Source: Spizellomyces punctatus DAOM BR117 (taxonomy: Eukaryota). From it: 64,000 bases of DNA. The notes beneath the pieces are model-generated. The model was not told where the DNA came from. It did not search any database and saw nothing but the letters and a program-made list of their open reading frames with translations. The stretch lies in assembly GCA_000182565.2 (NCBI GenBank), contig KQ257466.1. One strand, 5' to 3'. The first letter of the stretch is position 1. Every line of letters starts with the position of its first letter. Of this stretch, positions 4,684 to 24,257 are shown one piece after another. The translations under genes were made by a program, and so were the position numbers.

Positions 4684-5126
4684 TTGTCTAGTGTAGAGTG
4701 ATTATGTAGATTCGATAGAGGCAGCTACCCTTCGATCGAAGCTAGATGACTTTTACTTTCATCGTCATAAGAATCATTGTAATATTAACTTTTACCGTTT
4801 GGATTGCCTCAACATAAAGGCCAAAGAGAATCTTGACTGGAAAGACTTTGTGCCTCCCATGGGACTTGACAATAATGCCACCCGCACAAACAACATCTGT
4901 AAATTACAAACCTTTTGATCGAATGACCATATAATAAAGAATCCGATATTTCGTTCATTACTGGCTGGTTGAGTTGACCACTATGAAAGAAGAACCAGGG
5001 TTCTTCCTATGCGGATTGTCTGTTGGTGTTCGAAAACCTAACTGGAGAGCTGCCATGAAAGCAGAAAAGGAGCCACGCCAGGGCGATCAAAGTCTGGCGG
5101 GCATAGTCTAAGAACGCGTCGCAACA

Positions 5127-5156
5127 TAGTGCGGAGCCGGTGGGTATTGGCACTAG
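5127..5156 (+). repeat. Left TIR of Fanzor element (includes TA)
   Basis: TAGTGCGGAGCCGGTGGGTATTGGCACTAG is the exact reverse complement of 14560-14589. Confidence 0.97.
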
Positions 5157-5242
5157 TACAGTGATTCCAACCAATTGAATCATAATTTTACTCGATTTAG
5201 ACTCATGAACTATGATTTGATAATGGTTCGATGCACAAACGA

Positions 5243-5333
5243 TGCTCCACCATTGAAAAACGGGTCCAATATGTGCGGCAATGAACGGATTGAATATTCT
5301 GCAGTTGCTCCACCATTGAAAAACGGGTCCAAT
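5243..5333 (+). repeat. 28-bp subterminal direct repeat pair in Fanzor left end
   Basis: TGCTCCACCATTGAAAAACGGGTCCAAT at 5243-5270 and 5306-5333. Confidence 0.9.
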
Positions 5334-5350
5334 GCGCAGTTGTCATATCT

Positions 5351-5447
5351 CTATATAAACCCGCCTTCTCTGCCCATTTCCCAGGTTTTCATCATTCTCT
5401 GCCGATAGGCTTTCATCATTCTCTGCCCATTTTCCAGGCTTTCATCC
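5351..5447 (+). promoter_or_regulatory. Putative Fanzor promoter: TATA box followed by pyrimidine-rich tandem repeats
   Basis: CTATATAAA at ~5351-5359, then three imperfect TTCTCTGCCC..AGG.TTTCATC units ahead of the ATG at 5468. Confidence 0.5.
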
Positions 5448-5467
5448 ATTTTTCTATTCCAATCATC

Positions 5468-5611
5468 ATGCCGCCAAAGAAAAAGCAAAAGCTTGAAAAA
5501 CTTGACAAACCCACCTTACATACCTGCAACAAAACTTCCTTTGCAAAAGCTTTCCTGCCTAATGAGACCTACCACCAACGGCTTCTAGATTACATCACCA
5601 TCATCCATCAA
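5468..5611 (+). pseudogene. Fz1: Fanzor1 nuclease, segment 1 (NLS and N-terminus)
   Basis: MPPKKKQKLEKLDKPTLHTCNKTSFAKAFLPNETYHQRLLDYITIIHQ; frame resumes exactly at 12152 after removing the Gypsy element and one TSD. Confidence 0.92.
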
Positions 5612-6100
5612 TGTAACAGGCTAGCAGGGACAAGAAGACAACAGAAAACTAGGGAAGACTTGGTTACTCTTGTTATTCTCCTTTGAGGGGCCTCAGAGAG
5701 GTCCTCTTTTTATAGACAAAGGGGCTGACAAATGCTATATCCTAACTACCCAATCAGATCTCACCCACATCATCCTAAACTATTTGTCAGCCTATTGCAC
5801 CATTTGCAACCAATCAGAACTCATACATGTCATCCTAAACTATTTGTCAGCCTATTGCACCATTTATAGCCAATCAGAAGTGAGACAAGTCATCCTAAAT
5901 ACACTGTGCCACTTGATTGAAAGGGGCAGATGCCAGTGTGTCAGAATACTCATCTAATTTAGCCAGAAATGGCTAAATCTGCTTATTTATCTAATTCTGG
6001 TCAAATGAATGCTGACACCATCAGCAAAGTCATGTGCCCACTAGTTTGGAACCACATCTAACCAGTATAACCATAGCACTGACAGAAGAATTCTGTCACA
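5612..6100 (-). repeat. 3' LTR of Gypsy element (489 bp)
   Basis: TGTAAC...GTCACA; highly similar to 11604-12146; internal CCAAT-containing tandem units. Confidence 0.96.
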
Positions 6101-6112
6101 CTCCCCCACTTT
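6101..6112 (-). other. Polypurine tract
   Basis: Minus strand reads AAAGTGGGGGAG directly abutting the 3' LTR. Confidence 0.85.
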
Positions 6113-6116
6113 AAGA

Positions 6117-8881
6117 TTAAGCTCCCTTCTGGGCTAGGAACTCCTTCAAGATTTCTCTGCCATGGGGTAGGAGGTTTTCTTCTGGTTCCCAGGTGTTCTG
6201 AGAGGAGGGATAGCCTTTCCACTTGATGAGGTAGAGATTCTTCTTCCTTCTGGTCTTGTGGTCAAGAATCTTCTCAACTTCCCAAAACTCTTCTCCTTGC
6301 TGGATAATTGGCTCAGGCTCAGGGGGTACTGGTCTGGTAGGGAAGTCCTCTGTGGGGTCCAAGTAAGGCTTGAGGAGTCTCACATGGAACACTGGATGAA
6401 TCTTCATGGTGCTGGGGAGCTCCAGGGTGTAATTCTGAAATTCATCCTTGGCCTTGATTCTGTAAGGTCCAAGCCAGGGGTGAAGAAGTTTCTGGGCTGG
6501 CCTCTGGGCTTCTTCTTCTGGGGTGATACCTTCTCTAGACAGCCAAACTTTGGAGCCTAGGGGGTAGCTTGGGGCCTTGCTGAGAGACTTGTTGGCTTGC
6601 TGAACTTGTCTTTCTTGGGCCAGTATCATGTTATCCTTGGCTACTTGAAGCAGTTGCTGAATATACTGGTGGAAGTCTGTTGCTTCAAGATCATTGCTTT
6701 CTCCTGGTGGTGTTGCTGGGGTCCTGGGATGCCGGCCATTCTCCAAGTAGAATGGGGTAGAGCCTGTGGTTTCTGAGATACTGTTGTTGTAGGTGAACTC
6801 AGCAAAGGGGAGAAGATCTTCCCAATTCTTCATGTTGTACTGCAGGAAAGCTCTGAGGTAAATCTTCAAAGTCTTGATGGTTCTCTCTGCCTGTCCATTG
6901 GTCTGCTGGTGCCTTGCAGTGGCTAGGAGGGTGTTGCAGCCTAAGAGTTGCATCAAGTTGGACCAGAATGAACTGGTGAACTTGGTGTCTCTGTCTGATA
7001 CAATCACTTCTGGGAGGCCATGGTGCTTGAAGATGTGCTTCAAGAAGAGCAGGGCCAGGTCCTTGGCTGAGGCTCTGGTGGTGGTAGGGATGAAGTGGCC
7101 TCTCTTTGACAATCTGTCAACAATGACAAAGATGGCATTGTGATCAGAGGAAGTCATAGGTAGGTCAGGGATCAGGTCAATGGAGATCTGGCTCCATCTG
7201 GTCTTAGGTACTGGGAGGGGCTGCAGCAAGCCTGCTGGTGGTTGCTGACTAGGTTTGCTTCTCTGGCAGGAATCACAAGACTTGACATACTTCTTAATGT
7301 CCTTGTACATCCTTGGCCAGTAGTAATGCCTTGCTAGGGCATCATGGGTCTTGGTGATGCCAAAGTGTCCAGCATATTGAGTGTCATGGGTTTCTTGGAG
7401 TAGGCTCAACCTTAGGTCTGGGTCACTAGGAACAAAGATCCTGTCCTGGAAATAGAGTAACCCATCCTGATGGCTGAGGTACTTGAGCCTTTGTTGCTGG
7501 TCTTCTGGTCTCCTGGGGTCATCCAAAGCTTGGATGAGCTCTTGAAGTTCTGGGTCTTCTGTGGTACTGGTCTTCAATCTCTCTTGAAGGGTGCTGGTGG
7601 TGTGGGTCACAGCATTCAACTCTGCTGTCACCAAGGCCTTGCACTTGATGCATCTTGGGGCCAGGTCTGGTCTTCTAGACAGGATGTCTGCCACTGTGTG
7701 GAGTCTTCCTGGGCCATAGCCAATCTCAAAGTCAAAAGATTGGAAATTCATGACCCATCTGGCTTGTCTTCTGGTCAAGAAGGGCTGGTTCTGTAGCCAC
7801 TTGAGGGACTGGTGGTCTGAGATAACTTTGAAGGGGGTTCCTTCCAGGTAGGGCCTCCAAACTCTGAGGGCATCATGGATGGCTAACAGCTCTTGTTCTC
7901 TGGTGTCATATCTGGTCTCTGCTGGAGCCATCTTCCTGGAGTGGTAGGCAACTGGTCTCATGCCTTTCCCATCATCCTGTCCAAGCCATGCTCCAACTGC
8001 ATAGCCTGAGGCATCAGGGAAGACAGTGGTAGGCAAGGCTGGGTCAAAGGGTCTGAGTACAGGGGCTTTGGTGACCATATCCTTCAGCTGCTGAAAAGCT
8101 TTCTCCTGAGGTTCAGACCAGGTCCAGGGCTTGTCATTTCTCAACAGGTCTGTCAATGGTGCAGCTTGCTCTGCCAGGTCCTCCAGAAAGCTATGGAAGT
8201 AGTTCACCAGGCCCATGAACTGTCTGACTTCAGTGACACTCTGAGGGGTGGGCCATTCTTGAACAGTCTGCACTTTCTTGGGATCAAGCTTGACTCCTTC
8301 ATGTGAGACTACATGGCCAAGAAACTCTACTTCTTGCTTGAGGAACTGGCACTTGCTGGGGTTGGCATACAGCTTGTTCTGCCTGAGGGCTTGCAGAACC
8401 TGCTTGAGGTGGTCCAGGTGATCTTCTGGGGTCTTGGAGTAGATGAGGATGTCATCTAGGTAGACAATAACAAAGATGTCCAAGAAGGGTCTAAGGACAT
8501 CATTCATCAAAGTCATGAAAGTGGCTGGGGCATTGGTCATTCCAAAGGACATGACCAGGAACTCAAAGTGACCATATCTGGTTCTGAAGGCTGTCTTGGG
8601 GATGTCTTCTGGGTGGACTCTGATCTGGTAATAGCCTGACTTCAGATCTAGCTTGGTAAACACCTGGGCTCCATTCAGCCTATCCATCAGCTCATCAATC
8701 CTAGGGAGGGGATATCTGTTCTTGATGGTGATTTTATTCAGAGCCCTGTAGTCCACACACATCCTCAAAGACCCTTCTTTCTTCTTAACAAAGAGGATAG
8801 GTGCTCCAAATGGGCTCTTGGATGGTCTGATGTGGCCTGCCTCCAGAAGTTCTGAAAGCTGCTTCCTCAGTTCTTCTAACT
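6117..8881 (-). CDS. pol: Gypsy pol: RT, RNase H, integrase, chromodomain (5' part lost in gap)
   Basis: [15 protein letters not shown], RNase H DASG, HHCC (H-x6-H...CDSC), integrase D-D-E (IDLI, SDRD, AER), GPY motif, chromodomain [26 protein letters not shown]; frame open from the gap to the stop. Confidence 0.96.
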
Positions 8882-9775
8882 NNNNNNNNNNNNNNNNNNN
8901 NNNNNNNNNNNNNNNNNNNNNNNNNNNNNNNNNNNNNNNNNNNNNNNNNNNNNNNNNNNNNNNNNNNNNNNNNNNNNNNNNNNNNNNNNNNNNNNNNNNN
9001 NNNNNNNNNNNNNNNNNNNNNNNNNNNNNNNNNNNNNNNNNNNNNNNNNNNNNNNNNNNNNNNNNNNNNNNNNNNNNNNNNNNNNNNNNNNNNNNNNNNN
9101 NNNNNNNNNNNNNNNNNNNNNNNNNNNNNNNNNNNNNNNNNNNNNNNNNNNNNNNNNNNNNNNNNNNNNNNNNNNNNNNNNNNNNNNNNNNNNNNNNNNN
9201 NNNNNNNNNNNNNNNNNNNNNNNNNNNNNNNNNNNNNNNNNNNNNNNNNNNNNNNNNNNNNNNNNNNNNNNNNNNNNNNNNNNNNNNNNNNNNNNNNNNN
9301 NNNNNNNNNNNNNNNNNNNNNNNNNNNNNNNNNNNNNNNNNNNNNNNNNNNNNNNNNNNNNNNNNNNNNNNNNNNNNNNNNNNNNNNNNNNNNNNNNNNN
9401 NNNNNNNNNNNNNNNNNNNNNNNNNNNNNNNNNNNNNNNNNNNNNNNNNNNNNNNNNNNNNNNNNNNNNNNNNNNNNNNNNNNNNNNNNNNNNNNNNNNN
9501 NNNNNNNNNNNNNNNNNNNNNNNNNNNNNNNNNNNNNNNNNNNNNNNNNNNNNNNNNNNNNNNNNNNNNNNNNNNNNNNNNNNNNNNNNNNNNNNNNNNN
9601 NNNNNNNNNNNNNNNNNNNNNNNNNNNNNNNNNNNNNNNNNNNNNNNNNNNNNNNNNNNNNNNNNNNNNNNNNNNNNNNNNNNNNNNNNNNNNNNNNNNN
9701 NNNNNNNNNNNNNNNNNNNNNNNNNNNNNNNNNNNNNNNNNNNNNNNNNNNNNNNNNNNNNNNNNNNNNNNNNNN

Positions 9776-9898
9776 GGTTCTCTGGAGTTCTGGGGTTCTC
9801 AGGGGTCCTGGGATTTTCTGGGTTTCTGGGGTTCTCTGGGATTCTGGGATTCTCTGGGTTTCTGGGGTTCTCTGGGATGCTGGGGTTCTCTGGGGTTC
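9776..9898. repeat. 18-bp tandem repeat (GGGGTTCTCTGGGTTTCT-like) between gag and pol, running into a gap
   Basis: Minus-strand translation gives (RTPETQ)n-like units. Confidence 0.85.
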
Positions 9899-10048
9899 CA
9901 GGTAAAGTCCATGGATAGTTAAAGTCTCAGGGGTGGTTTCAGGTGGGTCCAATAGGTCCAAGGGTTGAATAAAGGAGAGTGTACCAGGTGGTGGGTGTCA
10001 GGGTGGTGGTTCTTATATCTTCCCCAGTAGAGGCAGAACCTCTATCTT

Positions 10049-10739
10049 CTACTGAGTCTGCTTGCCATTTCCCTGCTGCTTGGTCTTCAAGGGGCAGAGG
10101 GGGGCAATATGGCCTGGTTTTCTGCACCTGAAACAGGCTCCCTTCTTTCTGAGCTCAGTCTTCTCAGCCTCAGTGAGTTTGGAGAGAGGCTTCCCAGAGT
10201 TGGTGGATATACTATCTATCTCCATAGGGACTACTCCAGAGTTCTCAGTCTTGGGGGAGTAGTAGCTGGTGGCCTGGCTTCTTCTCTGGTAGCTGAACTG
10301 GATCTGGTCAATCCTATCAGCTGCTGCTGCAGCTGTGGCTAAGTTGATGGTACTGGTGGGGTTGAGCTCCAGTTGTTCCTGAACCCTGGGTTTAAGCCCT
10401 CTGATAAACTTGTCTAACTTTTCAGCTTCTGACAAGTCATCCACCTGAAGGCATAAAGTATTGAACTGGTTTAGGTACTCCTTTACTGAGCCTTGTTGTT
10501 TGAGCCTGGCCAACTGGTCTCTTGCTGCTCTGGTGGCATTTGCTGGGAGGAAGTTCTCTTGAAGGGCTCTCTTGAACTGGTCCCAAGACTGGATTCTGAG
10601 AGGGGATCCTACTGGGTGGTTCTTGACATGGCTTTGCCACCAGACTTCAGCATGGAGTTCCAAGTAGGTGGTGGCTACTAACAGTTGGCCTTCTGGTGAT
10701 AGATCTGCAGCTGCCTGGAAGTACTCTTCAAGTCTGAGG
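10049..10739 (-). CDS. gag: Gypsy gag (N-terminus in gap) with zinc knuckle
   Basis: Retrotransposon gag signature (AEVWW...SWDQFK...LKQQGSVKEY...FIRGLK), PMEID and CFRCRKPGHIAPLC. Confidence 0.92.
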
Positions 10740-11044
10740 NNNNNNNNNNNNNNNNNNNNNNNNNNNNNNNNNNNNNNNNNNNNNNNNNNNNNNNNNNNNN
10801 NNNNNNNNNNNNNNNNNNNNNNNNNNNNNNNNNNNNNNNNNNNNNNNNNNNNNNNNNNNNNNNNNNNNNNNNNNNNNNNNNNNNNNNNNNNNNNNNNNNN
10901 NNNNNNNNNNNNNNNNNNNNNNNNNNNNNNNNNNNNNNNNNNNNNNNNNNNNNNNNNNNNNNNNNNNNNNNNNNNNNNNNNNNNNNNNNNNNNNNNNNNN
11001 NNNNNNNNNNNNNNNNNNNNNNNNNNNNNNNNNNNNNNNNNNNN

Positions 11045-11200
11045 ATGTTGCAGTCAAGATAGGGTGGGTCACAGGCCCAAGAGTATGCAATGTTACTTGC
11101 AGTCAAGATAGGGTGGGTCACAGGCCCAAGAGATGCAATGTTACTTGCAGTCAAAATAGGGTGGGTCACAGGCCCAAAATATGCAATACTACTTGCAAGT
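11045..11200. repeat. About 48-bp tandem repeat in the Gypsy 5' leader, running into a gap
   Basis: Three copies of TTGCAGTCAA(G/A)ATAGGGTGGGTCACAGGCCCAA. Confidence 0.85.
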
Positions 11201-11593
11201 ACAACTGGTGGGGAGGATACAGGGGGACTCTACAGCTTCTTCACAATCCCACAATAGAAAAGCTCTATCTGTTTTATCAGAGCTTCTGATGCTAACCAAG
11301 TGGTGTGTCTGGTGGTAGTTCTGGAGGTTGTGCTGGGGGTAGGTTTGTGGTATGGGATGGTGTGGGCTGGTCTGTAGGAGTCCTTGAGGGGGGTTCTGGG
11401 CATAAGTTGGGTCTGGGATAAGAGGCAGGGGTCTTCTGATATTACTCAGAAGGACTAAGGCTGGGTCTGGGGTCTGGGGTCTGTTGGTCTTCTGATATTA
11501 CTCAGAAGGTCTAGGGCAGGTTCTGGGGGTCTGGGGATCTTAGCTTCTGATCTCTCACAGAAGGTCTAAGAGTCTGGGGTTGTTGTCTAAGGT

Positions 11594-11603
11594 GGTGCTA
11601 CCA
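11594..11603 (-). other. Primer-binding-site-like sequence
   Basis: Minus strand TGGTAGCACC immediately follows the 5' LTR; resembles the tRNAi-Met PBS (TGGTAGCG) of Ty3. Confidence 0.6.
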
Positions 11604-12146
11604 TGTAACAGGCTAGCAGGGACAAGAAGACAACAGAAAACTAGGGAAGACTTGGTTACTACTTGTTCTCCCTTTGAGCGGCCTCAGAGAGGTCCTCTTT
11701 TTATAGACAAAGGGGCTGACAAATGCTATATCCTAAGGGGCCTCAGAGAGGTCCTCTTTTTATAGACAAAGGGGCTGACAAATGCTATATCCTAACTACC
11801 CAATCAGATCACATGTCATCCTAAACTATTTGTCAGCCTATTGCACCATTTGCAACCAATCAGATCTTGTACATGTCATCCTAAACTATTTGTCAGCCTA
11901 TTGCACCATTTATAGCCAATCAGAAGTGAGAGAAGTCATCCTAAATACACTGTGCCACTTGATTGAAAGGGGCAGATGCCAGTGTGTCAGAATACTCATC
12001 TAATTTAGCCAGAAATGGCTAAATCTGCTTATTTATCTAATTCTGGTCAAATGAATGCTGACACCATCAGCAAAGTCATGTGCCCACTAGTTTGGAACCA
12101 CATCTAACCAGTATAACCATAGCACTGACAGAAGAATTCTGTCACA
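11604..12146 (-). repeat. 5' LTR of Gypsy element (543 bp)
   Basis: Same termini as the 3' LTR; carries an extra 59-bp tandem duplication (11678-11736 and 11737-11795). Confidence 0.96.
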
Positions 12147-12151
12147 ATCAA

Positions 12152-12522
12152 CTTGCCGACCATGCTTCCCACGCGCTGAAATTCTATCTCCTTTCATCAG
12201 CGCCAGTTTTTCCCACAGTAAATCAAGAGACGATTGAAGCCATCCTCTATCTTCTCAACAAAGGTGAATCATGGCAACCAAAAACCGGTGCGAAGAAGGC
12301 ATTACGCGAATCCTTGTTGCCATACATTCGTTGGTACTGCCACATCGTTGGCTTCGTTCATCCAAATCTACAAAAAGAGCAGCAATCAGTCAATTACCTG
12401 ACAGCAAGTATGATGGCGAATCTGAAGGTCAACATCCAGGAACACTTCATGATGATGCTGCTCCGGTACATTAATCTGCGGCTCGACGTGAAGGGACAGA
12501 AGCAGCGACTGCCACTGAAAAG
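12152..12522 (+). pseudogene. Fz1: Fanzor1 nuclease, segment 2 (REC region)
   Basis: LADHASHALKFYLL...MLLRYINLRLDVKGQKQRLPLK; in frame with segments 1 and 3. Confidence 0.92.
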
Positions 12523-13122
12523 TGTAACAACGAGGACGTCTTCGAGAGATCGCGAGTAAGCCCAAATCGGACGCAGGAAGCATGAATCGCGTGACCAACT
12601 CCACCGATTGGGTTACCGTGACCGAAAAAACCAGTTCAGAGAATGGCAATTGGCGCATTAGATTTCAGCGTGCCTTGTACAACCTGTGGAGGCCCGAGCC
12701 AGTGTGGAAAAGGAAGAGATTGGTACCGCCACCAATAAATCAGTTGCGGTGCAGTGACACCCATTAGTTTAGTTTAGTTTAACAGTTTATCCAAGAATCT
12801 TGTATAAAAAGGATGTATTCAATAAAATAAGTCAGGGGCAGAAGCCGTAGTGACACTAAATCCCCATAACTCGCTTCTCAACTCCAATCTTAGGTTAACA
12901 GGAACCTAACAGAGTGCTTCAACGGCCTGATCACCTGTACTGAAGCCTCTAAATCCTGCTCGGTTCACAACTAACCGACTCTCCTTGCCTCTTGCCCCCA
13001 AGTCGCTACCGACGCCCAAAGAAAGGATTCGGAGACTATGATTCCTAGTACGGCCACCCACATAACCTGCTAGGAGACCCAAGTCGTCTTTACCGTAGTC
13101 TACCAACAAAAAATCCGCTACA
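12523..13122. mobile_element. Solo LTR (600 bp) of a second LTR-retrotransposon family, nested in Fanzor ORF
   Basis: TGTAAC...GCTACA termini; 4-bp duplication AAAG (12519-12522 and 13123-13126); TATAAAA and AATAAA inside; removal restores the frame (PLK-S-DARKAFF). Confidence 0.85.
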
Positions 13123-13126
13123 AAAG

Positions 13127-14501
13127 CGATGCGCGGAAAGCTTTCTTTGCTCGTCTTCACTACTTGAAGTCGGTTTTCCTTTTCAAAACCATGCCAGAAT
13201 CGCTGGATGACTTGACTGCTGAAGAGAGTGAACTTCTAGAAGAGATTTGGTCCCTTAACATTCCCCTTTCTGACGACCAGCCACTCGCATATTCCGTTGC
13301 TGTAGACCCTCTCGTGTTCTTTCCTGCATACTGTCGGTTGTCAAGCCTATATGAAAAGCATGGATTTCGACAGTTCAGTGCGATACCTCTGTGCCGCTCG
13401 CTCATTCAAAGTCACGTGCGAATGGACACCATCATCCTGTACCAGCATATCCTTTGCATCACGCAGTGAGACACAGAAACTGTCGAAAAGGATGATCTGT
13501 GGTTGCGCGTCTGTAATCTGTGGAACAAGGCTTTTAGATCTCGCCACGGTATGCAGTTTGAAGGCTCGATCACGACGGATGGAACCTCAGTGTCTGTATA
13601 CCTAAAGCACCCAGAAGCAGACAAGTATGGAAAGCGCAGAGCGAGAAAGTCAGCAAACATGGTGGCAGCGGAGGTTAAAGTGCAATACATGGAGAAAAAC
13701 TTACCTGCTTGTCGAGCAGCAGAGAATGTCGTCGTTATCGACCCAAACAAGCACGATATTCTCTACTGCCAAGACAACAGTGGTATGACATTTCGCTACA
13801 CCGCCAACCAGCGAGCTGTGGAGACTGGAAGCCGTCGATTTGCAACAGAACGGCAGCAGATGAAGAAGGAAGCGGGAATGGACCTCATAGAATCACGTAT
13901 CCCTAGTCACAAGACAATGAACCTCATGGACTTCATGCGCTATCTCCTTGTTCGGCGCGCTGATTGGGATCGTCAAAAGGACTTCTATTCGCATCCTGCC
14001 CACACGTGGTGGAAGTGGCATGCATTTATAAACCGTCAGAAGAGTGAATCGAACCTCATATCCAACTTACGCAACAAGTACGGTGAAAACTTTACCATTG
14101 TGATGGGAGATTGGAGCGATGCCGGTTGAACTGCAAGATTTCAGACCTCATCAAAGACGAAAGGTTGGCGCACCCTCTTTAAGCGCAACAGGATCAACTG
14201 CTTCCTTCTCGACGAGTATAAAACCTCATCTGTCTGCCCTCACTGTTCATCCGATGACTTCCTTGAAAAAGGTTTCAAAACACGACCTCATTCAAGACCT
14301 TGGCGACGACGAGAAGGCAAGATTGAAAAAGTCCATGGATTGCTGGGTTGTACCAACCCTAACTGTCAGCAAGCCTGGACGATGCGCTACTGGAATCGAG
14401 ATACGCTGAGCACCTGCAATATGCTGATAATCGTGCAATCAATGTTGGATGGACACAGTAGACCAGAAGTGTTCAGCAGGAGTGTTCCAGCCGTAGCTTA
14501 G
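13127..14501 (+). pseudogene. Fz1: Fanzor1 nuclease, segment 3 (WED, RuvC, zinc finger) with two in-frame TGA stops
   Basis: SITTDGTSVS, RuvC-I VVVIDPN, VMGDWS, RuvC-II LLDEYKTS, CPHC...CTNPNC, RuvC-III WNRD, ending RPEVFSRSVPAVA*; stops at 13467-13469 and 14127-14129. Confidence 0.95.
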
Positions 14502-14515
14502 ATTGGTTAGATTAG

Positions 14516-14604
14516 GTTTTCCGAGCCGGTTGTCGCCGGTTCAATCCCTGGTGCGGGTGCTAGTGCCAATACCCACCGGCTCCGCACTAGCTTGTCCTTG
14601 CAAC
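14516..14604 (+). ncRNA. Fanzor omegaRNA (scaffold 14516-14589 plus about 15-nt guide from flanking DNA)
   Basis: Starts just after the ORF stop and overlaps the right TIR; hairpin GAGCCGG/CCGGTTC and stem GTGCGG/CCGCAC; matches my recollection of the SpuFz1 omegaRNA; guide GCTTGTCCTTGCAAC (guide length assumed). Confidence 0.88.
14560..14589 (-). repeat. Right TIR of Fanzor element
   Basis: CTAGTGCCAATACCCACCGGCTCCGCACTA. Confidence 0.97.
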
Positions 14605-14633
14605 TTAAGTCATCCGCCACTTTTCAACAAACG

Positions 14634-15732
14634 ATGGCTTCCGAAACGATTCCCGCCCGCTTCGGCCATATCCGGCGTTACTTTGCGCTCTTCCTCCTCC
14701 TTACTGTGATTATTGGTGTGAGCGCATACGAGGACACTGTTCCGTTGATTCTATGGAGTGGCAAAAAGTAGCCGTCATGGTGCTCCCTGTCCGTTGAACC
14801 TGCACCTTACTTGAGTCGTCTATTTCTTTTCCAGATTTTCAGTTCCAAGTACCTCCTCCATACTCCGGAGATCAGACTTGTCGCCAGTGTTTGGAAACGT
14901 CGGTTGTCGGAAACTGAATGTGGTCTTTGAACAGAAAGATGTGCGCATGTCGTGTATCTGTCGCTACTCCCCTGCTACATCATTTAACACAAACATTTAT
15001 ATAGCTTCACGCCTTGGATCTTCCTCATTTGTCTCCCGCAACCAAAAAGTTGAAACGATCAGTAGACTCTGCTCCTTCGAGCCTCAAAATATCATTTGTT
15101 GCGGCCGCAAATGATGTGAAAGATGTCGTGGAACATATCCAGGATGCATGCCAGAAAGCTGGGCAGGAGGCTGTCGTTCTGAAAATTGGAGAAGGTATGA
15201 TCGACCACGGAGGGAGAAATAAAACTATCAAGATAATAACGCATGTTTGGTCCCTAATACAGATGGGTCGGTACCTGATCTCAGTGATGGAAAAAGTTAC
15301 ATCCTGGTCGCTAGTTTGAAGCCTCTTCGCGCCGCTTCAGCAGCAGAACACGTCGAGACAATGACCGAAAATGACAACGTTATCGACAAGGTGCTGACCG
15401 ACATCACCAAGCTGGAACAAGACGATTGGACAGCTGTGTTTACCGGTGTATCCAACCCTTCGGTGCGTCCACGCTGTTTGGTTGATGTATTGTTACCTGT
15501 AGACTCACCAGTGCATACGCAATTACAGACGCTGCGAAAGCGAGCTACTCAAGCCACCCCCTTGCCATGGAGCAAGCGCCCCATCTTCCAGAAATACGTG
15601 TTTTTCAATCAAGGTCTCTTCATGTGCATTTTCGCGATGGTGCCTCTCGTGATCATCGGATTACTTGGCGTACGAATCATTAGCAGTATTCAAACGCCCA
15701 CTCGCTATGAAACCAAGAAGAAGGAAAAATAG
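14634..15732 (+). CDS. Voa1/Big1/Ac45-like ER type I membrane protein (multi-exon)
   Basis: Signal peptide followed by VPLILWS; C-terminal IFQKYVFFNQGLFM, TM helix, IQTPTRYE and dilysine tail KKKEK. Confidence 0.75.
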
Positions 15733-15972
15733 GGACTAGAATCCTCTACGCTCATTCTCTTATATGTTGTGCCTGAATATACCTTGCTGTTCGTCTTCAC
15801 GTAAAGAACAAAGTGGACTCTGCATCAGTAATTGTCACGCGTAACAGAATTGCAAACTGTATTGGTATATAGTATGCGAAACAGCTGTAACATGGTGTAA
15901 TTCGGTACTGGAATGCCAAACTTCCGATTTACCTGTGAGTATCAGTATCGACTAAGACTCCAGCGTTCCTGC

Positions 15973-17440
15973 TTAAAGTCGCCATTTGGAAGCTTTTTTG
16001 GACGCCTCCAACATGTGTGTGATATCGCATTTCGTAACGGCACAAAGCGGTTTGTAAGCCAACCTATTGAGATCGGGAAAGAAAACCAACCCTGCCGCTC
16101 GCTCGATTGCTACGTAGATACACAATCAGATTTACAGATAATAAAGGGCATGAAATGGCGCCGGGAAGCTTACCGTCAAGCGGCATAGTAAAAGCTTCAA
16201 GGGATGCAGTGTTTTCAATGGGTTCATTGGGCAGGACGAACCCTTGTAAGGCATGCTCCTTTCCCTTCACACCCAATACAACTGCAAATGTCGTAAGTTA
16301 AAACGTTGGGCGTTCTAAACCGATCAGGGACGCAACTCACCCTTGTAAAAATGCGTCGGAACAGCCGTATTTGGTGGATCGCCGATAACCTCATACTTGA
16401 CGTACGATCGCCCATCTTCTCCTACTTTTGGTAGGTAGAGTGGTCCAGTAATGACATAAACATCGTCAAAGACTTTGGTGAGGGATCGAACAAAGCTCTC
16501 AAAATAGAACCAGTAGTTTCTATTGAATCCCTTTCCGACTTGGGGGCTGATATTTGTTACTGTTCTTTGGCAATATGTAATCAGTGGAAGCGTAGTGTGC
16601 GATGAAGAGGTTGGACGTACAAAGGAAGGTTTCGTTAATAGCTTCTTGTGAATCGCGAACGTCAGCAGCTGGTGCGAGGTGCCCCCTAATAATCTTAAAG
16701 ATTGAGTCTGGAAACAATTGCGAAAAGTCTCGAGTTAGTGAATCCAACAAATTACCGATCATATCCGGTCTTCACATAATCCTTCAGCTTTGCACGGAAT
16801 AATCTTGGAATCCGTAAATCCTCTCTGAAGGTCGAATGACTCCGGTCCGGTTTATCAAGATTCGCTTCATCTACTACTATCAGACTAGTGGAGGAATTGG
16901 ATTTTCCCTCCAGGGTAGCTGCTGTCAGATGCTCTGCTACCTGGGTCGTAATATAAACAAAGCGGGTAGCGAAGCTGTTTCGGACAATAAGCAGTATCGT
17001 ACCCAGTTTGGATTTCTTAAAGAACGATTGTAGGAAGTAACTAATGGTGATAAGCGGTAGTGGCTAGTTGTTAGTCTGGCTGCTTTGTACAAGAGGCTGT
17101 CATTCTATATTCCATACCATATGCTTGGCGGTAGAGGAGATCAGATACTGGCCCTTTGAAGAAGAAAAGGCGACAATAATAATAATGATAAAGCCATTGC
17201 CAGTATATGCCAATATGCACAATTAAAATAACCTGGAAAGCCAAACTTCATGATTTCCTTTGCTTTATGGACTGGTTGTTCAGTCACATCCGTAGGTAGT
17301 GTTGGAGGCAATGTAGCAGGAACATGCGGGACAATTACTTCTGTTTTTTGCGTGCGTTTATACAGTGCAATACCCCCCAGTCCCCCCAGCACAGCTCCAG
17401 CTCCAAATGCCACTGCGGCGGTCAACCTTGATACAGGCAT
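15973..17440 (-). CDS. NUC1: Mitochondrial DNA/RNA non-specific endonuclease (EndoG/Nuc1), multi-exon
   Basis: KFGFPG, RNPNWV, GYDR-GHLAPAAD, GPLYLP...YVKYEVIG and AVPTHFYK across introns. Confidence 0.92.
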
Positions 17441-17582
17441 TGCGTTAGAGAATTCAACAATGGGGTCGTGAGCATGTTCAATCCTCCTTTGCGACCGCGC
17501 CTAGCAACGCTCCCCCAAGTGTGATGTGGTCATCATCCCCGACGAAGGCGTCCTTCCCATCTTGCAGCATTTCTATCCCAAA

Positions 17583-18368
17583 ATGCCCCGTACCCTAATT
17601 CTCCTGACAGGCGCCTCGAGGGGCTTTGGGAAATCTCTCACCCTAGCCCTATCGGCGTCTAAACTCGTAGCACAAGAGACCGACTTGTTACTGACGGCCC
17701 GTAACACTGCTCAGTTGGAAGAAACCAAGGCGGAAGCCCTCGCAGCGGCGTCGTCAAAGTCTCTTCACATTGTAACGCATTCGGCTGATTTTACATCTCT
17801 GGATCTGGACAGCGTTTGCAAAGATTTGTTTGCCAAAATCCCACACCCGGCGACTCAATACGCGCGGGTATATCTTTTCAACAATGCCGGGTCACTGGGG
17901 AAACTCGACAGAATGCGACACCAAACTCCCGATGACATTAGCCCTGCCGTTCATCTGAACCTTACCGCTCCTCTAGCATTGACGTCCGCTTTTCTAAGAC
18001 ACTTTCCCAACCCCACTCAGATCCATATCATCAACATATCCTCATTAGCGGCCATCCAGGCTTTTGACTGTTGGGGCGTTTACTCTGCAACCAAAGCTGC
18101 CCGAGATATGTACCACAAGACCATTGCAGTGGAAGAGCCCAACATAAGGGTATTGAATTATGCACCTGGACCACTGAATACTGATATGCAGACGAGGATC
18201 AGGGAGGAGATGCCGGATGTGCCTTTGAGGGAGGTGTACACTGACATGCATGCTCAAGGCAAGTTGGTTGAACCAACGGTTTCTGCCAAGGTATTGATTG
18301 GATTGTTGGAGAAGGATGAGTATGAGAATGGGGCACATATAGATATCTATGATGTCAAGGGATGGTGA
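17583..18368 (+). CDS. Short-chain dehydrogenase, sepiapterin reductase-like, intronless
   Basis: TGASRGFG, NNAGSLG, NISS, YSATK and YAPGPLNTDMQ. Confidence 0.88.
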   Translation: MPRTLILLTGASRGFGKSLTLALSASKLVAQETDLLLTARNTAQLEETKAEALAAASSKSLHIVTHSADFTSLDLDSVCKDLFAKIPHPATQYARVYLFNNAGSLGKLDRMRHQTPDDISPAVHLNLTAPLALTSAFLRHFPNPTQIHIINISSLAAIQAFDCWGVYSATKAARDMYHKTIAVEEPNIRVLNYAPGPLNTDMQTRIREEMPDVPLREVYTDMHAQGKLVEPTVSAKVLIGLLEKDEYENGAHIDIYDVKGW

Positions 18369-18859
18369 CTTGCCTTTAGTGGGACGGTGGAAAAGGAATG
18401 TTTATTGTAAATGTAAACCCAAATATGAACTCTTGGTTTTCAAGTTTCCTATTTTTAAAAGTAGCTATGCTGGATGAGTGACGTACGTTGACTGTCTTTT
18501 CGTTTAGCAATCTAATCACTTGCATGGTCAGAGCAATGCGGAACGGAAGGAGTGATCTGCACAGCCCATGACCTTGACATTCGCCATTAATGCCTGGGTT
18601 AGTGGCACGATTCTTCGTTGAGCAAAGCAGGAGGATGAGATCACCCAAAGGCTGCTTACACTCTCCTCGGTCGGTTGACCCTTCGTTTCTACATCTTGTT
18701 GTCCGACAACAGCGCAGCAAACGAGGTTGTTCGCTCAGTTCCAGTTGATGTTTTGGTCGTGGCCGATGCTGCGCGATCATGATGAGTCAATCACGGAAAT
18801 TTACCCAATTTTTTGAACTGCCAAAAGTCATTGCTGCTGAATTGCCAAATTCCAACAAC

Positions 18860-19648
18860 ATGTTTGCTAAACGACTCTGCACACATCGACAGAGACTTTT
18901 CAACCCCTTCCCTTCGCACATATCTCGTCGATTCCTCCAAGTACCTGTCAACCAAGTCAAACGAGGGGCGGTCATTGAGCTGCGAGACAGAATATGGGTG
19001 GTAAACAATTACACACACCACACTCAGGGGCGAGGAGGAGCACACTACAAGTTTGATTTGCGGGATGTAACTGGATCTGGGAAGGCGTTGGAGAGGTTTA
19101 ATTCCGGACAGACGGTGGAAGGTGGGGAACTTGGATATTATGGAAGATCAAATTGTTTTGTCTGATTCGTTTCTTTATGCAATAGTTGTTGAGCTGGATA
19201 CAAAAGAGCTGCAGTTCTTGTACCTAGATGACCAAGAGCTGCACTTGCTAGACAATGAAACCTTTGAAGAGCATGCCTTTCCACTTGGTATTTTCAATGG
19301 TATGATCCAGATCTGTGATTTGCGGCCTTTTCATATAATCAGTTGCTTACTCGGGGATAATAAAAAGGCGGTGACAAAGCGATACCGTTTCTGCAAGACG
19401 GAATGCGGATTGAAGTCGATTTTCATGAAACAAAGCCCGTGGTCGTAAAGATGCCAGAGCGAGGTACTTACACCGTGGTGGACACTCCACCTGTTGCGTC
19501 GAGCGGAACTAACGAGAGCAAGGGCACCATGTTCAAAGATGCGACCTTGGATTCTGGGGCTCATGTTATGGTCCCAGAATTTGTCAACATTAGAGATAAG
19601 ATTGTAGTAGATCTTGGAGAGTACAGATATGTTACGAGAGCCAAATAG
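18860..19648 (+). CDS. efp: Bacterial-type elongation factor P with mitochondrial presequence (3 exons)
   Basis: KOW-like start VNQVKRGAVI..., loop TQGRGGA, ERFNS..VE, LQFLYLD, K.ATLDSG..VMVPEFV...DKIVVD...YVTRA; Arg-rich leader lacking acidic residues. Confidence 0.88.
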
Positions 19649-19831
19649 ATGATGGGACAGTTGAGATGGGAACACCAATCTCAAGCATGCGGTTTTCAAA
19701 AAGTTCACAATTGTTCAAAGTGGGTGACATACGGCGAAGATCAGTAAACGTATTACAATATTCTCTGTTAAAACTGATGATGATAATTGACTTGCGATAC
19801 AAAATTTAAAAGAATATCTAGCACAAAACAA

Positions 19832-20398
19832 CTACTTGCTAGATTTGCTCCCTTCACTGACAGGCTCGCGATAAACTACGACTGGAACCTTGGAATGGCT
19901 TAGGACATAACTGCTTACGCTACCCATAACCAAGTTCTTCAGAGCTCCTCGTCCGCGATTGCCAACAATAACCATGCTCGCTCCTAGCTTGTCGGCAGCT
20001 CCCACCAGGACCTCCCTGGGATCGCCCCAAACGAGCCGTGCTTCTACTTTTACGCCGTCCAAATCTTTGGCGTACTTTTGTCGCACATCTTGTACAAGAG
20101 TCTTCATACCATCCATTACATTTTGTTTAACTTGTTCTATGTAGCCGGTAATATCCACTCCAGTATAGAAATCCATCGCGGCCGGTGGGAACGCGCGGGG
20201 GATGGTGTGGAGAATAACGAGGGTGTCATTTGGTTTTAGAAGATGAGTAAAGGTGTACTTTAGCAAGGGCTCTGCATCGGGTGAGTCCAGCCCGAGGAGG
20301 ATAAGTCGTGCGGGCTCCGTGGTTGGTGCAGGAAGGTGGGCCAGTGTGGTAGGTTCCAGAGTATCTGGAGCGGGACCATCGAATACTTGCGAGGACAT
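19832..20398 (-). CDS. Universal stress protein (Usp) domain protein
   Basis: GDPREVL...IVGNRGRGALKNLVMGSVSSYVL..SKVPVVV. Confidence 0.92.
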   Translation of the reverse strand: MSSQVFDGPAPDTLEPTTLAHLPAPTTEPARLILLGLDSPDAEPLLKYTFTHLLKPNDTLVILHTIPRAFPPAAMDFYTGVDITGYIEQVKQNVMDGMKTLVQDVRQKYAKDLDGVKVEARLVWGDPREVLVGAADKLGASMVIVGNRGRGALKNLVMGSVSSYVLSHSKVPVVVYREPVSEGSKSSK

Positions 20399-20533
20399 GT
20401 TTGCTTTTGTTTTGCGCTTGCTATTAGGAGTGCCTCTGTAAAGAAGGGAGAGCAGAAGGAAGGCCTTTTATAAAGCGGAAGCTACAAGATGCCAGTACAC
20501 AGCAAGACGCAGCATGACTCATCGACCGTGTCA

Positions 20534-21280
20534 TAATCGGACGTGATTGAAAATGGCACTAGGACCCATTATTATCCGGATTAATCCGGTTAGTCATATC
20601 GCATAATCAGCACCCCCATCTATCACTCAAAGCGGTGTGGCATGGATGCTAATGTTCTCCAAACTGCGGTGAGGCATGCTAATGTAACGTTTTGTCTTTT
20701 TCAGCTGGACCCCATTTTGCCACAATCGAGGTCTATAAAAGGGGGGCCTTTTGCTGTCTCTCCCCTTCCTCACCAGTTCCTCGACTCTCAAACCATCTGC
20801 GCAACTCTCATCGCGACTCGGTCCAATCATGAGAATGCAGATGTGGTGGTGCCGAGGACCTCGACCGCCCGACAGCAATCGTGATCAGAACCAGCGGCAA
20901 CCAATTGGATCCGATAACAAAACCTACTATTATGCTGCTACACTTGTTGAGCTTGGTTGGTAAGTACCAATGGCATTTCTTTTCATTCTGTCATTCATCT
21001 CGCTGACATGCAGTTTTTAGTCTCCAAGCCTTGTCACTGAAGATCCTCCAGCTTGCGAGTCTCCCCAATGTTGCGAAGACTCTGGCTTCAATGCCATCAA
21101 GAGTTCTGGATCAAGGCCTAGTAGGGACCGTGTGTGGTGGTGGGCAATTATCCGGTTACAACCAACCGTTACGTATTGCGTGTATAATTGTCTAGTAGTA
21201 GCTTAGCTTTTCCGAACCGGTTGTCGCCGGTTTATTCCCTGGTGTAGTAGCTAGTGCCATTTTCTGTCACCTCTACACTA
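20534..21280 (+). mobile_element. Non-autonomous Fanzor-family 'ghost' element (imperfect TIRs, omegaRNA, no nuclease ORF)
   Basis: CATA at 20532-20535; left end GTGATTGAAAATGGCACTAG matches the reverse complement of right end 21251-21270 at 18/20; right end carries an omegaRNA-like scaffold ending in CACTA. Confidence 0.75.
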
Positions 21281-21295
21281 ATCGACAAAAGATGT
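21207..21295 (+). ncRNA. Second omegaRNA-like RNA (scaffold to 21280, guide ATCGACAAAAGATGT)
   Basis: 21208-21280 aligns ungapped to 14517-14589 at 56/73 by hand count, with compensatory stem changes; preceded by GTAGCTTAG as at the Fanzor ORF end. Confidence 0.82.
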
Positions 21296-22173
21296 TTAAC
21301 AAAATATGAATATCGTGCAAAGAAACGTGCTCGCAAAAGTGTTTTAGCAGGTTGGTCTGGACAAGAAGTTTTGTTGGATTCGTTTGGATTGGCATTGCAG
21401 CTGGCTGAGTTCCGGCAGCAAAGCACGAGGTGGATTTGTCTTTGACGTTGTATCCAACAGAGCAATGAAACCACAAGGCCGTGACAGGCGAGTTGGAAGC
21501 TCATCTTGCGCTTGCCATCCTCTTCTCGATGTGGGCTTGCAAGGATGTGAACACTTAGCGTCTTTTCGTAACTTGTCTTTGCACTCTAAACTATCGGATT
21601 CCTCCTATTCAACAGCTTATCAATAGCTGAAACACAGAGTCTTCAAATGCAGTAAGGCATGTCTGGTTAAAGATTATTATAGCGTACAAAATGGAAGGAT
21701 GCTCTGGGGTGACCTAAAACATCACTGAATAACACCCATTTGCATGTAAATGTTGCGCAAGATGCATGAGTGCTTTCGATAAAGCGTCACCAGGGAACAT
21801 CATACTGGTGCTGAAAAGCGGTGCTCAACATGCTGTTTGCAAGTTTCAAGTGAAATCTACGGCATGGTTAACGCCTCAAAACCTGTGATCTACGGATGTT
21901 GGTATGTACATCAACCAGAAAGTCTTTCGGAGAAAGTTCATGCCAACCGTTCCAGCCCCGTACCGATCTATGGATTCCTTGAGTATTCAAACCAAATGTC
22001 TGCAATATCGGTTGGACAAACGTTGGAAAACACATCCCAAACCAGAAGTGTCAAACGATGGGATGTATCACGTGATGGGCATTACGATGTAACACTTTCC
22101 CCAGGCTAGACAAAAACTCCAGCCCATGTTGGTTCGTCACTCGTTTGGCGACCGTCCATTCACAAATTGCAAC

Positions 22174-24257
22174 ATGTCGAAGCAGGGACCACTGAAGCGA
22201 AAATCCAAGGGTGTTCTTCCCGACAATGCTCTTTCAATTACAGAGCGCATCTTTTATCAGTCGGCACCAGGTCGACCACAGGTGACGTACGGAAGGGCAA
22301 GGGCATCTTCAGGGATTTGTATTAACAGTCATCTTCTCGGTCTCGTCTATACAACAATGGGTTCCTCCAGGTCATAATGTCCTTTCTGTTGCGCCTACAC
22401 CTTCCACCGCAAACGCCAGACGTATCAATCCCACGGCTCGTCGACCTACTCAAGCTAGCTGCCTCCGAACACTATCGCTTGACATCTTTTGTAGATCCTA
22501 CCACACTCACCGTTCGCCCGTTGGGGGAAACTGCGGCAGATTTCAAGCCAGAATATCGTGTGGTAGCTCGGGAGGATCATGACACGTGGAGAAACGTCTT
22601 TTGTGATGAGATGAACATAAATTTCGACACCAACGATGTTACGAAACCTCTTTGGAGGACGGTTATAATTGCGCACAAGAGCGTGGCGAATGGTCAGGAT
22701 GTGGCTCCGTTGAAAGCGATAGATAGTGCAGTTGGGCTCAATGACTCAGCTTTGACGGTTCCGTCGGGAGAAGGAGAAACGGAGACTGGGTCGTCGAGTC
22801 CGAACTCGTCACACACTGTACCTAGCGCGGTAGAGTCTACGGACACACTCATTCCGGCGCAGCTCGGTCCCAACAAGATCGATACATCCCCGCTTACTTA
22901 TTCATCACACCGACTGGAAGATAAGCGTCATTTTGAGATCATTTTCTCTTTCCATCATTGCTTAGGGGATGGGCTTTCGATGTATGCTTTTGCAAAGACG
23001 TTCCTGGCGGTGTGCGATGCCGATCATTTGAACGCAAGTGATCTACGATTGGAAACGGTTGCACTGGTCACTGAGCCGCCACCATTGATTGATAATCTCT
23101 TTAATCCGTATCTGGTGCAAGTACTTCCTGGTAGGAACTGTACAGTCCCATTTAGCTGTCGGGATATTGGCCGATTGACCGCTAACTTGCATCATTTGAA
23201 AGTGGCCGCATCAATGGCAGTGAGCTTTGCGACCTCGAAAGGCCGCTCCCGCTTCAAAGGTCGTAAAGTCGATCGCATTACGGACAATACAGCTTCCCAA
23301 GCTTCATCATCAGATCCCATAACCCTAAACTCAACAGATGCTGAAACCGCTCTAAAACAAGAGTCACGACCCACCTTAACACGTCCCCTCACATTACCCA
23401 TCCCACGCCCGCTTTTAAACACATCACAAACAAACGCTCGCTTCCTTTGGTTCGATTCTGTGTTTACCGAATCTCTCAGAAAAAGAGCAAAAAGGGAGAA
23501 GACATCCATAGCGGCTGTTTTGGTGGTTGCTGCAATGGCTGCAGTTCGATCCGCATTCGAGACAATTCCCAAGTATTCCCAAGATCCATCAAAAAGGTGC
23601 CGCAAACGCCTGCCAACTCATCAAGGATGGGTAGTCACATCTACTATCCGATATCTGCTACCGGGATCGCGCCTCTTGCAAGGTGGCGACAGAGCAACCG
23701 ATCCTGCCATGCAAATATTTGGTGGATATAGTGGAAGTGTCATGAATTCGGCTCATCGATGTACCGACAGCGACACGTTCTGGGGGAGAGTTCGGTCAGT
23801 GCGGAGACGGATAGCGCAAAGTCAGCGATCAAGCGTGGCTCGACTTCAATTGGTAAATTGGTGTTTCCGCCATAAATCATTGTGGAAACGTATAAATGAG
23901 AGCACAGATCTCTCCAAACTTTCGCGATCCTATTCTGTAGAAGTAGCGAATTTGGGTGCTTGGGATTATCCTATTGCTTCACCACGACATAAATCACAGG
24001 ACGACCCTAGAGCAGTATTATCTCATTTTGCAGGATTAGTGAATTCCTCCTTTGACGGCGTACGCGGTTTGTTTACGTTAGGTGTGATCACACTGGGTGG
24101 TGATATGAGCGTTGGCGTAGGTTATGATAAGCATTCAGTGAGTGAAGCTGATGCAGACGCCTTTGTCACTGCATTTGAAAGATGCATGCGCAAGTTAGTG
24201 CTTGATGATAATGGACAAAAGAGTAGAGTTACAGTTGGGGAGCTACGAAAGTCTTGA
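22174..24257 (+). CDS. CoA-dependent acyltransferase, alcohol acetyltransferase/condensation-like fold
   Basis: HHxxxDG motif (FHHCLGDGLS), PLWR, late VANLG motif; introns near 22282-22370 and ~23131-23201. Confidence 0.75.

Follow-up and report, generated by a model that had tools for sequence, protein, structure and literature searches.

A probable ghost Spu-1 copy with an omegaRNA scaffold near a dead Fanzor gene in Spizellomyces punctatus

In the genome of Spizellomyces punctatus DAOM BR117, 42 Fanzor loci and 134 ghost Spu-1 loci have been reported (Saito et al. 2023, PMC10432273; statements cited to this paper refer to the available excerpts of it). Ghost loci are described there as carrying two regions homologous to the inverted repeats (IRs) of Fanzor loci, with the Fanzor open reading frame (ORF) absent; a conserved region of ~550 nt lies between 30-nt IRs that are unlike Fanzor IRs at seven positions, and CA is conserved upstream of the 5′ IR (PMC10432273). 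At the right end, a 75-nt region resembles the Fanzor omegaRNA region, except that stem 2 has a 3-nt bulge where the canonical type forms an 8-nt hairpin loop. When 75-nt omegaRNAs of four ghost loci were combined with SpuFz1 in human cells, indel levels were comparable to those of an extended canonical omegaRNA, and a broader range of targets through ghost guides acting in trans has been proposed (PMC10432273). Subsequently, 126 unique ghost scaffolds (gst1-126) of 74-76 nt were collated in 2026 and representatives were tested with engineered SpuFz1, ghost omegaRNAs again driving editing in human cells (PMC13434818, available excerpts). The ghost omegaRNA class, its structural contrast to the canonical type and its activity with SpuFz1 are thus already published: ghost elements are short, mobile, IR-bounded elements that have nothing but termini and omegaRNA scaffold in common with the Fanzor-carrying Spu-1 and lack a nuclease gene. 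Here we analyze a 64,000-nt stretch of contig KQ257466.1 of this strain (the window, to which all coordinates refer), in which positions 21207-21280 are, with high probability, the right-end module (a 30-nt IR and an omegaRNA scaffold of ~75 nt) of a ghost Spu-1 copy or a very close relative, as assigned by its features. The same window holds a Fanzor element, 5127-14589, the gene of which is a dead pseudogene and the scaffold of which served as the comparator.

The features on which the assignment is based are the following.
20534-21280, plus strand: entire probable element of ghost Spu-1 type (747 bp, counting both terminal TAs)
20532-20535, plus strand: left-flank CATA, formed by CA and the first TA of the left IR and equal to the target-adjacent motif (TAM) of SpuFz1
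20534-20562, plus strand: left-end IR, 29 nt, starting with TA at 20534
21251-21280, plus strand: right-end IR, 30 nt
21207-21280, plus strand: probable ghost-type omegaRNA scaffold, with stem-loop 1 at 21214-21233, a linker, and stem 2 at 21240-21280
21281-21295, plus strand: putative 15-nt guide ATCGACAAAAGATGT, the flank right after the scaffold, in the register given by PMC10432273 (available excerpts)
14516-14589, plus strand: comparator scaffold of the canonical omegaRNA type, located where the Fanzor element with the broken gene (5127-14589) has its right end

A first-pass annotation of the window, made from the sequence alone, had described the scaffold at 21207-21280 as a stand-alone RNA; instead, it is the right end of the IR-bounded 747-bp element 20534-21280. 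The 9-nt IR core CTAGTGCCA is found at exactly four sites in the 64 kb (0.39 expected from shuffles), namely 5148-5156 (minus strand), 14560-14568 (plus strand), 20554-20562 (minus strand) and 21251-21259 (plus strand), i.e. at two left ends and two right ends. The minus-strand core at 20554-20562 together with the plus-strand core at 21251-21259 therefore gives the second scaffold a left end of its own. The left and right IRs of this element are complementary at 23 of 30 positions, with one 1-nt gap. At the junctions, TAATCG is present on both sides (20534-20539 and 21279-21284), either as a 6-bp duplication or as a coincidence of the start of the left IR with the right flank, and ATCGGA of the left end aligns to TGCGGA of the left end of the Fanzor element.

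As the earlier annotation had stated, no nuclease ORF is attached to the scaffold. The longest stop-to-stop frame overlapping 20500-21320 (117 aa) is a minus-strand one, most of which falls beyond the element, frames within the element do not exceed 96 aa, there is no Fanzor ORF between the IRs, and a Pfam scan of the exons of the spliced ORF in the interior (described below) gave no match. The interior was also compared with the DNA of the Fanzor element, and the best local scores (16-24) were inside the range of 100 shuffles. As its interior lacks such similarity, the idea that this element arose from the Fanzor element by internal deletion was rejected.

To place the element within a family, contigs of four public runs were aligned to 20400-21400 at a likeness of at least 80%; runs X1 and X2 are DNA-like, and run X5, although labelled 'DNA?', behaves like cDNA, with no depth in the left flank and almost none in the right flank. 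On the ghost interval there are 205 contigs from X1, 235 from X2 and 333 from X5. Summed depth in X1/X2 is ~2-3.5 in the single-copy flanks, 375/379 in the bin 20536-20569 and 575/502 near 21283, with 3.6/0 beyond. These steps at 20536 and 21283 thus define the interval as a high-copy repeat whose boundaries are those predicted from the IRs. Three junction contigs (20401-20568, 20400-20572 and 21252-21400) represent the locus itself without differences. In 20536-20592 the family has no common variants, and the left-end sequence of this copy seems to be the family's own. Over 20672-20739, depth from the family nearly vanishes in X1 and X2, and this stretch may be found in this copy alone. From ~21202 on, some contigs of X2, X5 and X10 match the scaffold but carry a different sequence upstream, which suggests another type of element that has stem-loop 1 in common; the loose ends found at 21199 consist of Fanzor C-terminal coding sequence and thus belong to canonical loci.

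The ungapped match of 21208-21280 to the Fanzor scaffold (14517-14589) claimed at first pass was recomputed with the same result, 56 of 73 positions being identical and the remaining 17 comprising 11 transitions and 6 transversions. In a blastn comparison inside the window, the scaffold match spans 82 nt (76.8% identity, E = 4e-12), and a 23-nt stem-loop-1 motif is found at two sites in the window, one in each scaffold (0.00 expected from 100 shuffles). The differences are unevenly placed: the first 37 columns hold 3 of the 17, and the remaining 36 columns hold 14, which agrees with the reported clustering in the segment derived from the terminal inverted repeat (TIR). A covariance model built from both copies scores 21207-21280 at 99.5 bits (E = 7e-25), and with the filters off it found no further full scaffold copy in the window.

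In the 74-nt frame (14516-14589 for the canonical-type and 21207-21280 for the ghost-type copy), 18 of the 74 positions differ, and the base pairs common to both predicted folds are nevertheless standard in each copy (17 of 17, none broken); with the 3′ partners shifted by 1-3 columns as a register control, 30-56% of the cells pair. Two adjacent pairs, 39-69 (C-G to U-A) and 40-68 (G-C to A-U), are changed on both sides, which turns GTGCGG/CCGCAC of the 14516-14589 copy into GTGTAG/CTACAC of the 21207-21280 copy. Two further pairs show one-sided changes, 10-25 from G-U to A-U (GAGCCGG to GAACCGG) and 8-27 from G-C to G-U. The paired stem changes and the replacement of G-U by A-U, both noted previously, were thus confirmed on the 74-nt scaffold. 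Bases U5, C6, C7 and G20, which are the scaffold contacts in the cryo-electron microscopy (cryo-EM) structure (PMC10432273, available excerpts), are invariant between the two copies. In the predicted minimum free energy (MFE) fold, the 14516-14589 copy forms a stem 2 with an 8-nt hairpin loop (-32.7 kcal/mol), whereas stem 2 of the 21207-21280 copy is interrupted by a 3-nt bulge (CUA) and closed by a small terminal loop (-21.3 kcal/mol). The folds thus show the contrast that Saito et al. describe between canonical and ghost scaffolds. At the two compensatory pairs, the canonical and the ghost type of scaffold are each fixed for a different version, and the two-stem architecture is kept in both.

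Beyond the window, exact scaffold patterns had no matches in metagenome contigs and none in viral contigs. A looser pattern yielded four metagenome loci, all of which were rejected as partial, GC-rich chance matches (12.7-19.2 bits). Rfam gave no family match over 4500-22500 at E up to 1 and, for both 201-nt regions at E up to 10, chance-level matches alone.

When compared with the described systems, the element is most like ghost Spu-1: it has an IR pair without a Fanzor ORF, CATA at the left IR, a right-end scaffold of 74-75 nt with the 3-nt bulge, and many copies. This also bears out the suggestion of a distinct subfamily, given that ghost omegaRNAs are published as a subfamily with its own IR sequence (PMC10432273, available excerpts). 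The likeness to the canonical SpuFz1 omegaRNA (8GKH) extends to length and register, stem-loop 1, linker, lower stem 2, contact bases and the position of the guide right after ...CACUA; the differences are the 18 of 74 substituted positions, the rebuilt upper stem 2, the lack of an upstream Fanzor ORF and the unrelated interior. Like miniature inverted-repeat transposable elements (MITEs) with TIRs, the element is short, high-copy and flanked by TA at both junctions, with termini common to a larger partner; unlike in MITE-like pairs, neither Spu-1 partner encodes a known transposase, and the shared end also encodes a guide scaffold. As in the omegaRNA of TnpB from IS200/IS605 elements, the right-end scaffold reads into the flank as guide, and the TAM of the left flank joined to the guide is the empty site. 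The ghost element differs in being eukaryotic, in having TIRs and TA junctions, and in standing apart from the nuclease gene; TnpB omegaRNAs are discussed in PMC10432273, the available excerpts of which describe the Spu-1 omegaRNA as having no pseudoknot, unlike that of TnpB.

Several observations weigh against assignment to ghost Spu-1 or against function of this copy. At 747 bp, the element is longer than the ~610 bp implied for published ghosts (~550 nt and two 30-nt IRs), ~70-100 nt around the low-depth stretch 20672-20739 have almost no counterpart in the X1 and X2 family contigs, the two right IRs of the window differ at 10 of 30 positions compared to the published seven (a logo-based number), and the outer 10 nt of the left IR are imperfect. 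In the scaffold loop, this copy has T at 21260 where most of the family contigs have G (416 of 576 depth units in X1). X5 depth is very high over the scaffold of the family, with a mean of only 6.4 just past 21283. Finally, ghost scaffolds far from the cluster of canonical and ghost1 scaffolds edit less well (PMC13434818, available excerpts).

Some of these observations would also fit an inert fossil, that is, a copy of ghost descent that is no longer transcribed, loaded or mobile and whose structure reflects the descent of the family. Besides the low-depth stretch, the imperfect outer left IR and the very low X5 depth past the right end, this explanation can draw on the eight places at which the copy is unlike most family contigs (20593, 20625, 20879, 20939, 20963, 21159, 21191 and 21260) and on the neighbouring Fanzor copy, which is itself dead. 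However, the 17 common pairs and the protein-contact bases are all kept, and across the family contigs the 74-nt scaffold contains one place, 21260, with a variant at 10% of depth or more; the family-majority G at this place leaves the shape of the fold unchanged (-23.4 vs. -21.3 kcal/mol). Furthermore, a 112-nt X5 contig without differences covers 20647-20758, where family depth is low, which is a hint of transcription of this very locus. An inert fossil thus appears unlikely, while being the strongest of the competing explanations.

Less probable still is that the terminal hairpin is kept for a role at the DNA level, for example as the end that an unknown transposase would recognize, rather than for the RNA. 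The outer part of the inverted repeat provides the 3′ arm of stem 2, and this arm would be selected as a transposon end in any case, and the available excerpts of PMC10432273 give no known transposase for Spu-1. In addition, the covariance model also scores the left end of the ghost element (20534-20599, minus strand, 27.6 bits), a score that comes from the IR and the CCGGATTAATCCGG palindrome (CCGG) at similar spacing, a combination missing from the Fanzor-type left end. Against such a role, cryo-EM and sequencing of the ribonucleoprotein show the region as SpuFz1-bound RNA (PMC10432273, available excerpts), and the hairpin is missing from the Fanzor-type left end, where the model match is limited to columns 45-64 (11.8 bits). 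Beyond the IR, the left and right ends of the ghost element are no more alike than shuffles, and stem 2 is unformed at the left end; a mirror omegaRNA at that end, considered as a candidate, was rejected on the same grounds, as its inner similarity is not above shuffles and its MFE fold lacks stem 2. The DNA-level and RNA roles can, moreover, coexist.

Conservation of the scaffold structure was assessed by neutral simulation, in which 18 random substitutions were placed on the canonical scaffold under four models with 4,000 runs each. All 17 common pairs survived in 0.03-0.65% of the runs, including those with CpG transitions weighted 20- or 50-fold, and at least two double-sided kept pairs with all 17 intact occurred in no more than 0.4% (0.25-0.4% with CpG weighted 20- to 50-fold). 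The common pairs used in these simulations were themselves taken from the two sequences compared, but are in accord with the two-stem architecture seen by cryo-EM. A shuffle control on the two sequences is without power, the observed values being reached in 126 of 500 shuffles. To judge from the simulated substitutions, the predicted structure is conserved beyond the neutral expectation, consistent with the first-pass claim that it is under selection. Chance resemblance is very improbable in view of the E-value of the homology (4e-12), and so is the alternative that the first-pass annotation had itself raised, independent CpG decay of the paired positions: both double changes are indeed CG to TA and transitions make up 11 of the 17 differences, but CG to TA takes two hits per arm, the second of them outside a CpG context, which together with the simulations makes such decay a poor explanation, and the scaffold type is a family-wide consensus rather than a private decay product.

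The guide and its target can be read from the flanks. SpuFz1 binds right-IR RNA that reaches 14-15 nt into the flank, and it cuts DNA that has 5′-CATA beside the guide match, any mutation of the TAM abolishing cleavage (PMC10432273, available excerpts). In this copy, ...GTCATA closes the left flank and ATCGACAAAAGATGT opens the right one; CATA followed by ATCGACAAAAGATGT is therefore the element's own empty site. A site without the element would read ...GTCATA joined to ATCGACAAAAG. The target named at first pass, CATA+ATCGACAAAAGATGT, was accordingly correct as a sequence, but it is simply the reconstituted empty site of the element.

Elsewhere in the window, ATCGACAAAAGATGT has a single match with 14 of 15 positions, at 22482-22496 on the minus strand (mean of 0.24 in shuffles at up to two mismatches), inside a neighbouring ORF of 626 aa (22377-24257) that has no Pfam match. 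This one non-self match, 1.2 kb from the element and with one mismatch, is what could be cited for domestication, also proposed at first pass, in which the guide would be aimed at a host gene such as this ORF. It is, however, preceded by TAGG instead of CATA, and SpuFz1 cleavage is lost with any mutation of the TAM (PMC10432273, available excerpts). Its mismatch falls close to the TAM, at guide position 4, and the guide is plain flank of a mobile element. The match is probably a coincidence; nothing was found in support of domestication, which we regard as highly improbable.

No intact Fanzor gene is present within the window, and the protein must therefore come from elsewhere. Under the preferred assignment to ghost Spu-1, the plus strand of this copy would be transcribed through the scaffold and 14-15 nt of the flank, and SpuFz1 made at an intact Fanzor locus elsewhere would bind the scaffold, as shown for other ghost scaffolds. 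The complex would then cut CATA+ATCGACAAAAGATGT, i.e. the element-free site, and the cut, with repair from the filled copy, might favour retention or re-copying of the element, by analogy with what has been proposed for TnpB. The trans-acting guide cassette of the first-pass annotation therefore holds in so far as it is published for the ghost class with SpuFz1 supplied in trans (PMC10432273 and PMC13434818, available excerpts), but it is not novel, the locus being one copy of a repeat family. A reading of the raw sequence thus recovered a class of trans-acting eukaryotic guide RNA that took experiments to establish. The present analysis adds the annotation of the locus, namely the boundaries of the element, its empty-site target and the dead Fanzor neighbour.

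A possibly new side result concerns the interior of the ghost element, which may contain a spliced transcription unit with the following parts.
20734-20741, plus strand: TATAAAAG, candidate core promoter, proposed from the sequence and the rise in X5 depth
20829-20959, plus strand: exon 1, with ATG at 20829, 43 codons and 2 nt
20960-21020, plus strand: intron of 61 nt, GT..AG, from the gap in X5 depth and junction contigs
21021-21195, plus strand: doubtfully coding exon 2, as far as the stop of the spliced frame (TAG, 21193-21195)

Contigs do not reveal where transcripts begin and end or how abundant they are, and most of those in X5 derive from other members of the family. At the family level, the summed X5 depth is 10^4-10^5 over 20808-21283, after a climb from 84 through 772 to 44759 across 20706-20875. 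In the bin 20978-21011, X5 depth is 0, between neighbouring values of 5803 and 10492, while X1/X2 depth there is 38/55. Two X5 contigs start at 21020, and in the loose end that precedes them 21 of 24 positions agree, by eye, with the 3′ part of exon 1. These data indicate that the 61-nt intron 20960-21020 is spliced on the plus strand at the family level. RNA-like contigs are also continuous from the ghost interior into the scaffold, again at the family level. Neither this continuity nor the splice is described in the literature searched, the supplementary data of which may hold such a description. Run X10 (guessed to be RNA) has two contigs, none of them over the ghost interior, which is no sign of silence.

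The peptide of exon 1 is 93% identical to the N-termini of SPPG_09412 (80 aa) and SPPG_08830 (105 aa) of S. punctatus DAOM BR117, both of which read VELG-C-LQ across the exon junction; the exon-2 frames of the two proteins differ. When searched among proteins of 77-2000 aa, exon 1 matched these two annotated paralogues alone, and among proteins of similar length it matched none. The alternative exon-2 frame (21021-21203) had one match among proteins of similar length, and the exon-2 peptide had three in a full-library search, the best being a long STAND-NTPase-type protein, the only one of the three that was Pfam-scanned. Seven of the 11 common variants in exon 1 are at codon position 3, a post-hoc bias (binomial p ~0.04) that is too weak to count. 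A conserved ghost protein was rejected, given the different exon-2 frames between copies, the lack of a Pfam match and the weakness of the codon-position bias. Coding by the spliced ORF is thus doubtful, and the transcript is probably a non-coding leader that runs into the scaffold.

It is conceivable, and we put this forward tentatively, that ghost Spu-1 elements are self-contained guide-RNA genes, with a promoter, an abundant intron-bearing leader and a 3′ end processed to omegaRNA, so that Fanzor guides would be produced independently of Fanzor mRNA. As a guide-RNA gene of this kind, the element may carry in its leader a short upstream ORF of the SPPG_08830/SPPG_09412 type. A spliced unit feeding the omegaRNA, if true, would explain the expression of ghost guides without Fanzor mRNA.

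In the Fanzor element that served as the comparator, the left IR (5127-5156, 30 nt) and the right IR (14560-14589) match perfectly in inverted orientation, with CATA directly upstream of the left IR (5125-5128). The coding pieces match SpuFz1 (PDB 8gkh) over chain residues 396-445, 445-572, 563-684, 687-905 and 907-1032. The E-values of these five matches, not in the order of the residue ranges, are 1e-127, 9e-74, 3e-51, 3e-59 and 3.5e-23. After codon 48, the gene is split by a minus-strand retrotransposon of the Ty3/gypsy chromovirus type (5612-12146) with reverse transcriptase, RNase H, integrase, chromodomain and gag domains, long terminal repeats that are 86.6% alike and a 5-bp target-site duplication, ATCAA. 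Fanzor loci with Ty3 in the gene are mentioned by Saito et al. (PMC10432273). Two in-frame stops (13467-13469 and 14127-14129) are also present. A stretch of ~570 nt at ~12530-13104 is without a SpuFz1 counterpart, and the chain residues on its two sides overlap (563-572); it has no other copy within the window and could be an insertion or a local rearrangement. Runs of N occupy 1807-1914, 8882-9775, 10740-11044 and 57530-57710 of the window; two of them are within the Ty3/gypsy insert, the interior of which is partly unreadable.

Near 14493-14548, in part ahead of the canonical scaffold and in part inside it, TAGCTTAGATTGG and GGTTCAATCC resemble by eye the consensus of the A- and B-boxes of a tRNA-like promoter, a candidate that was rejected, ARAGORN finding 0 tRNAs in the window and Rfam no tRNA match. 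The start of a gene of the universal stress protein family (19832-20398, minus strand; Pfam Usp, E = 3e-25) is 136 nt away from the left end of the ghost element, which thus lies in or beside the promoter region of this gene.

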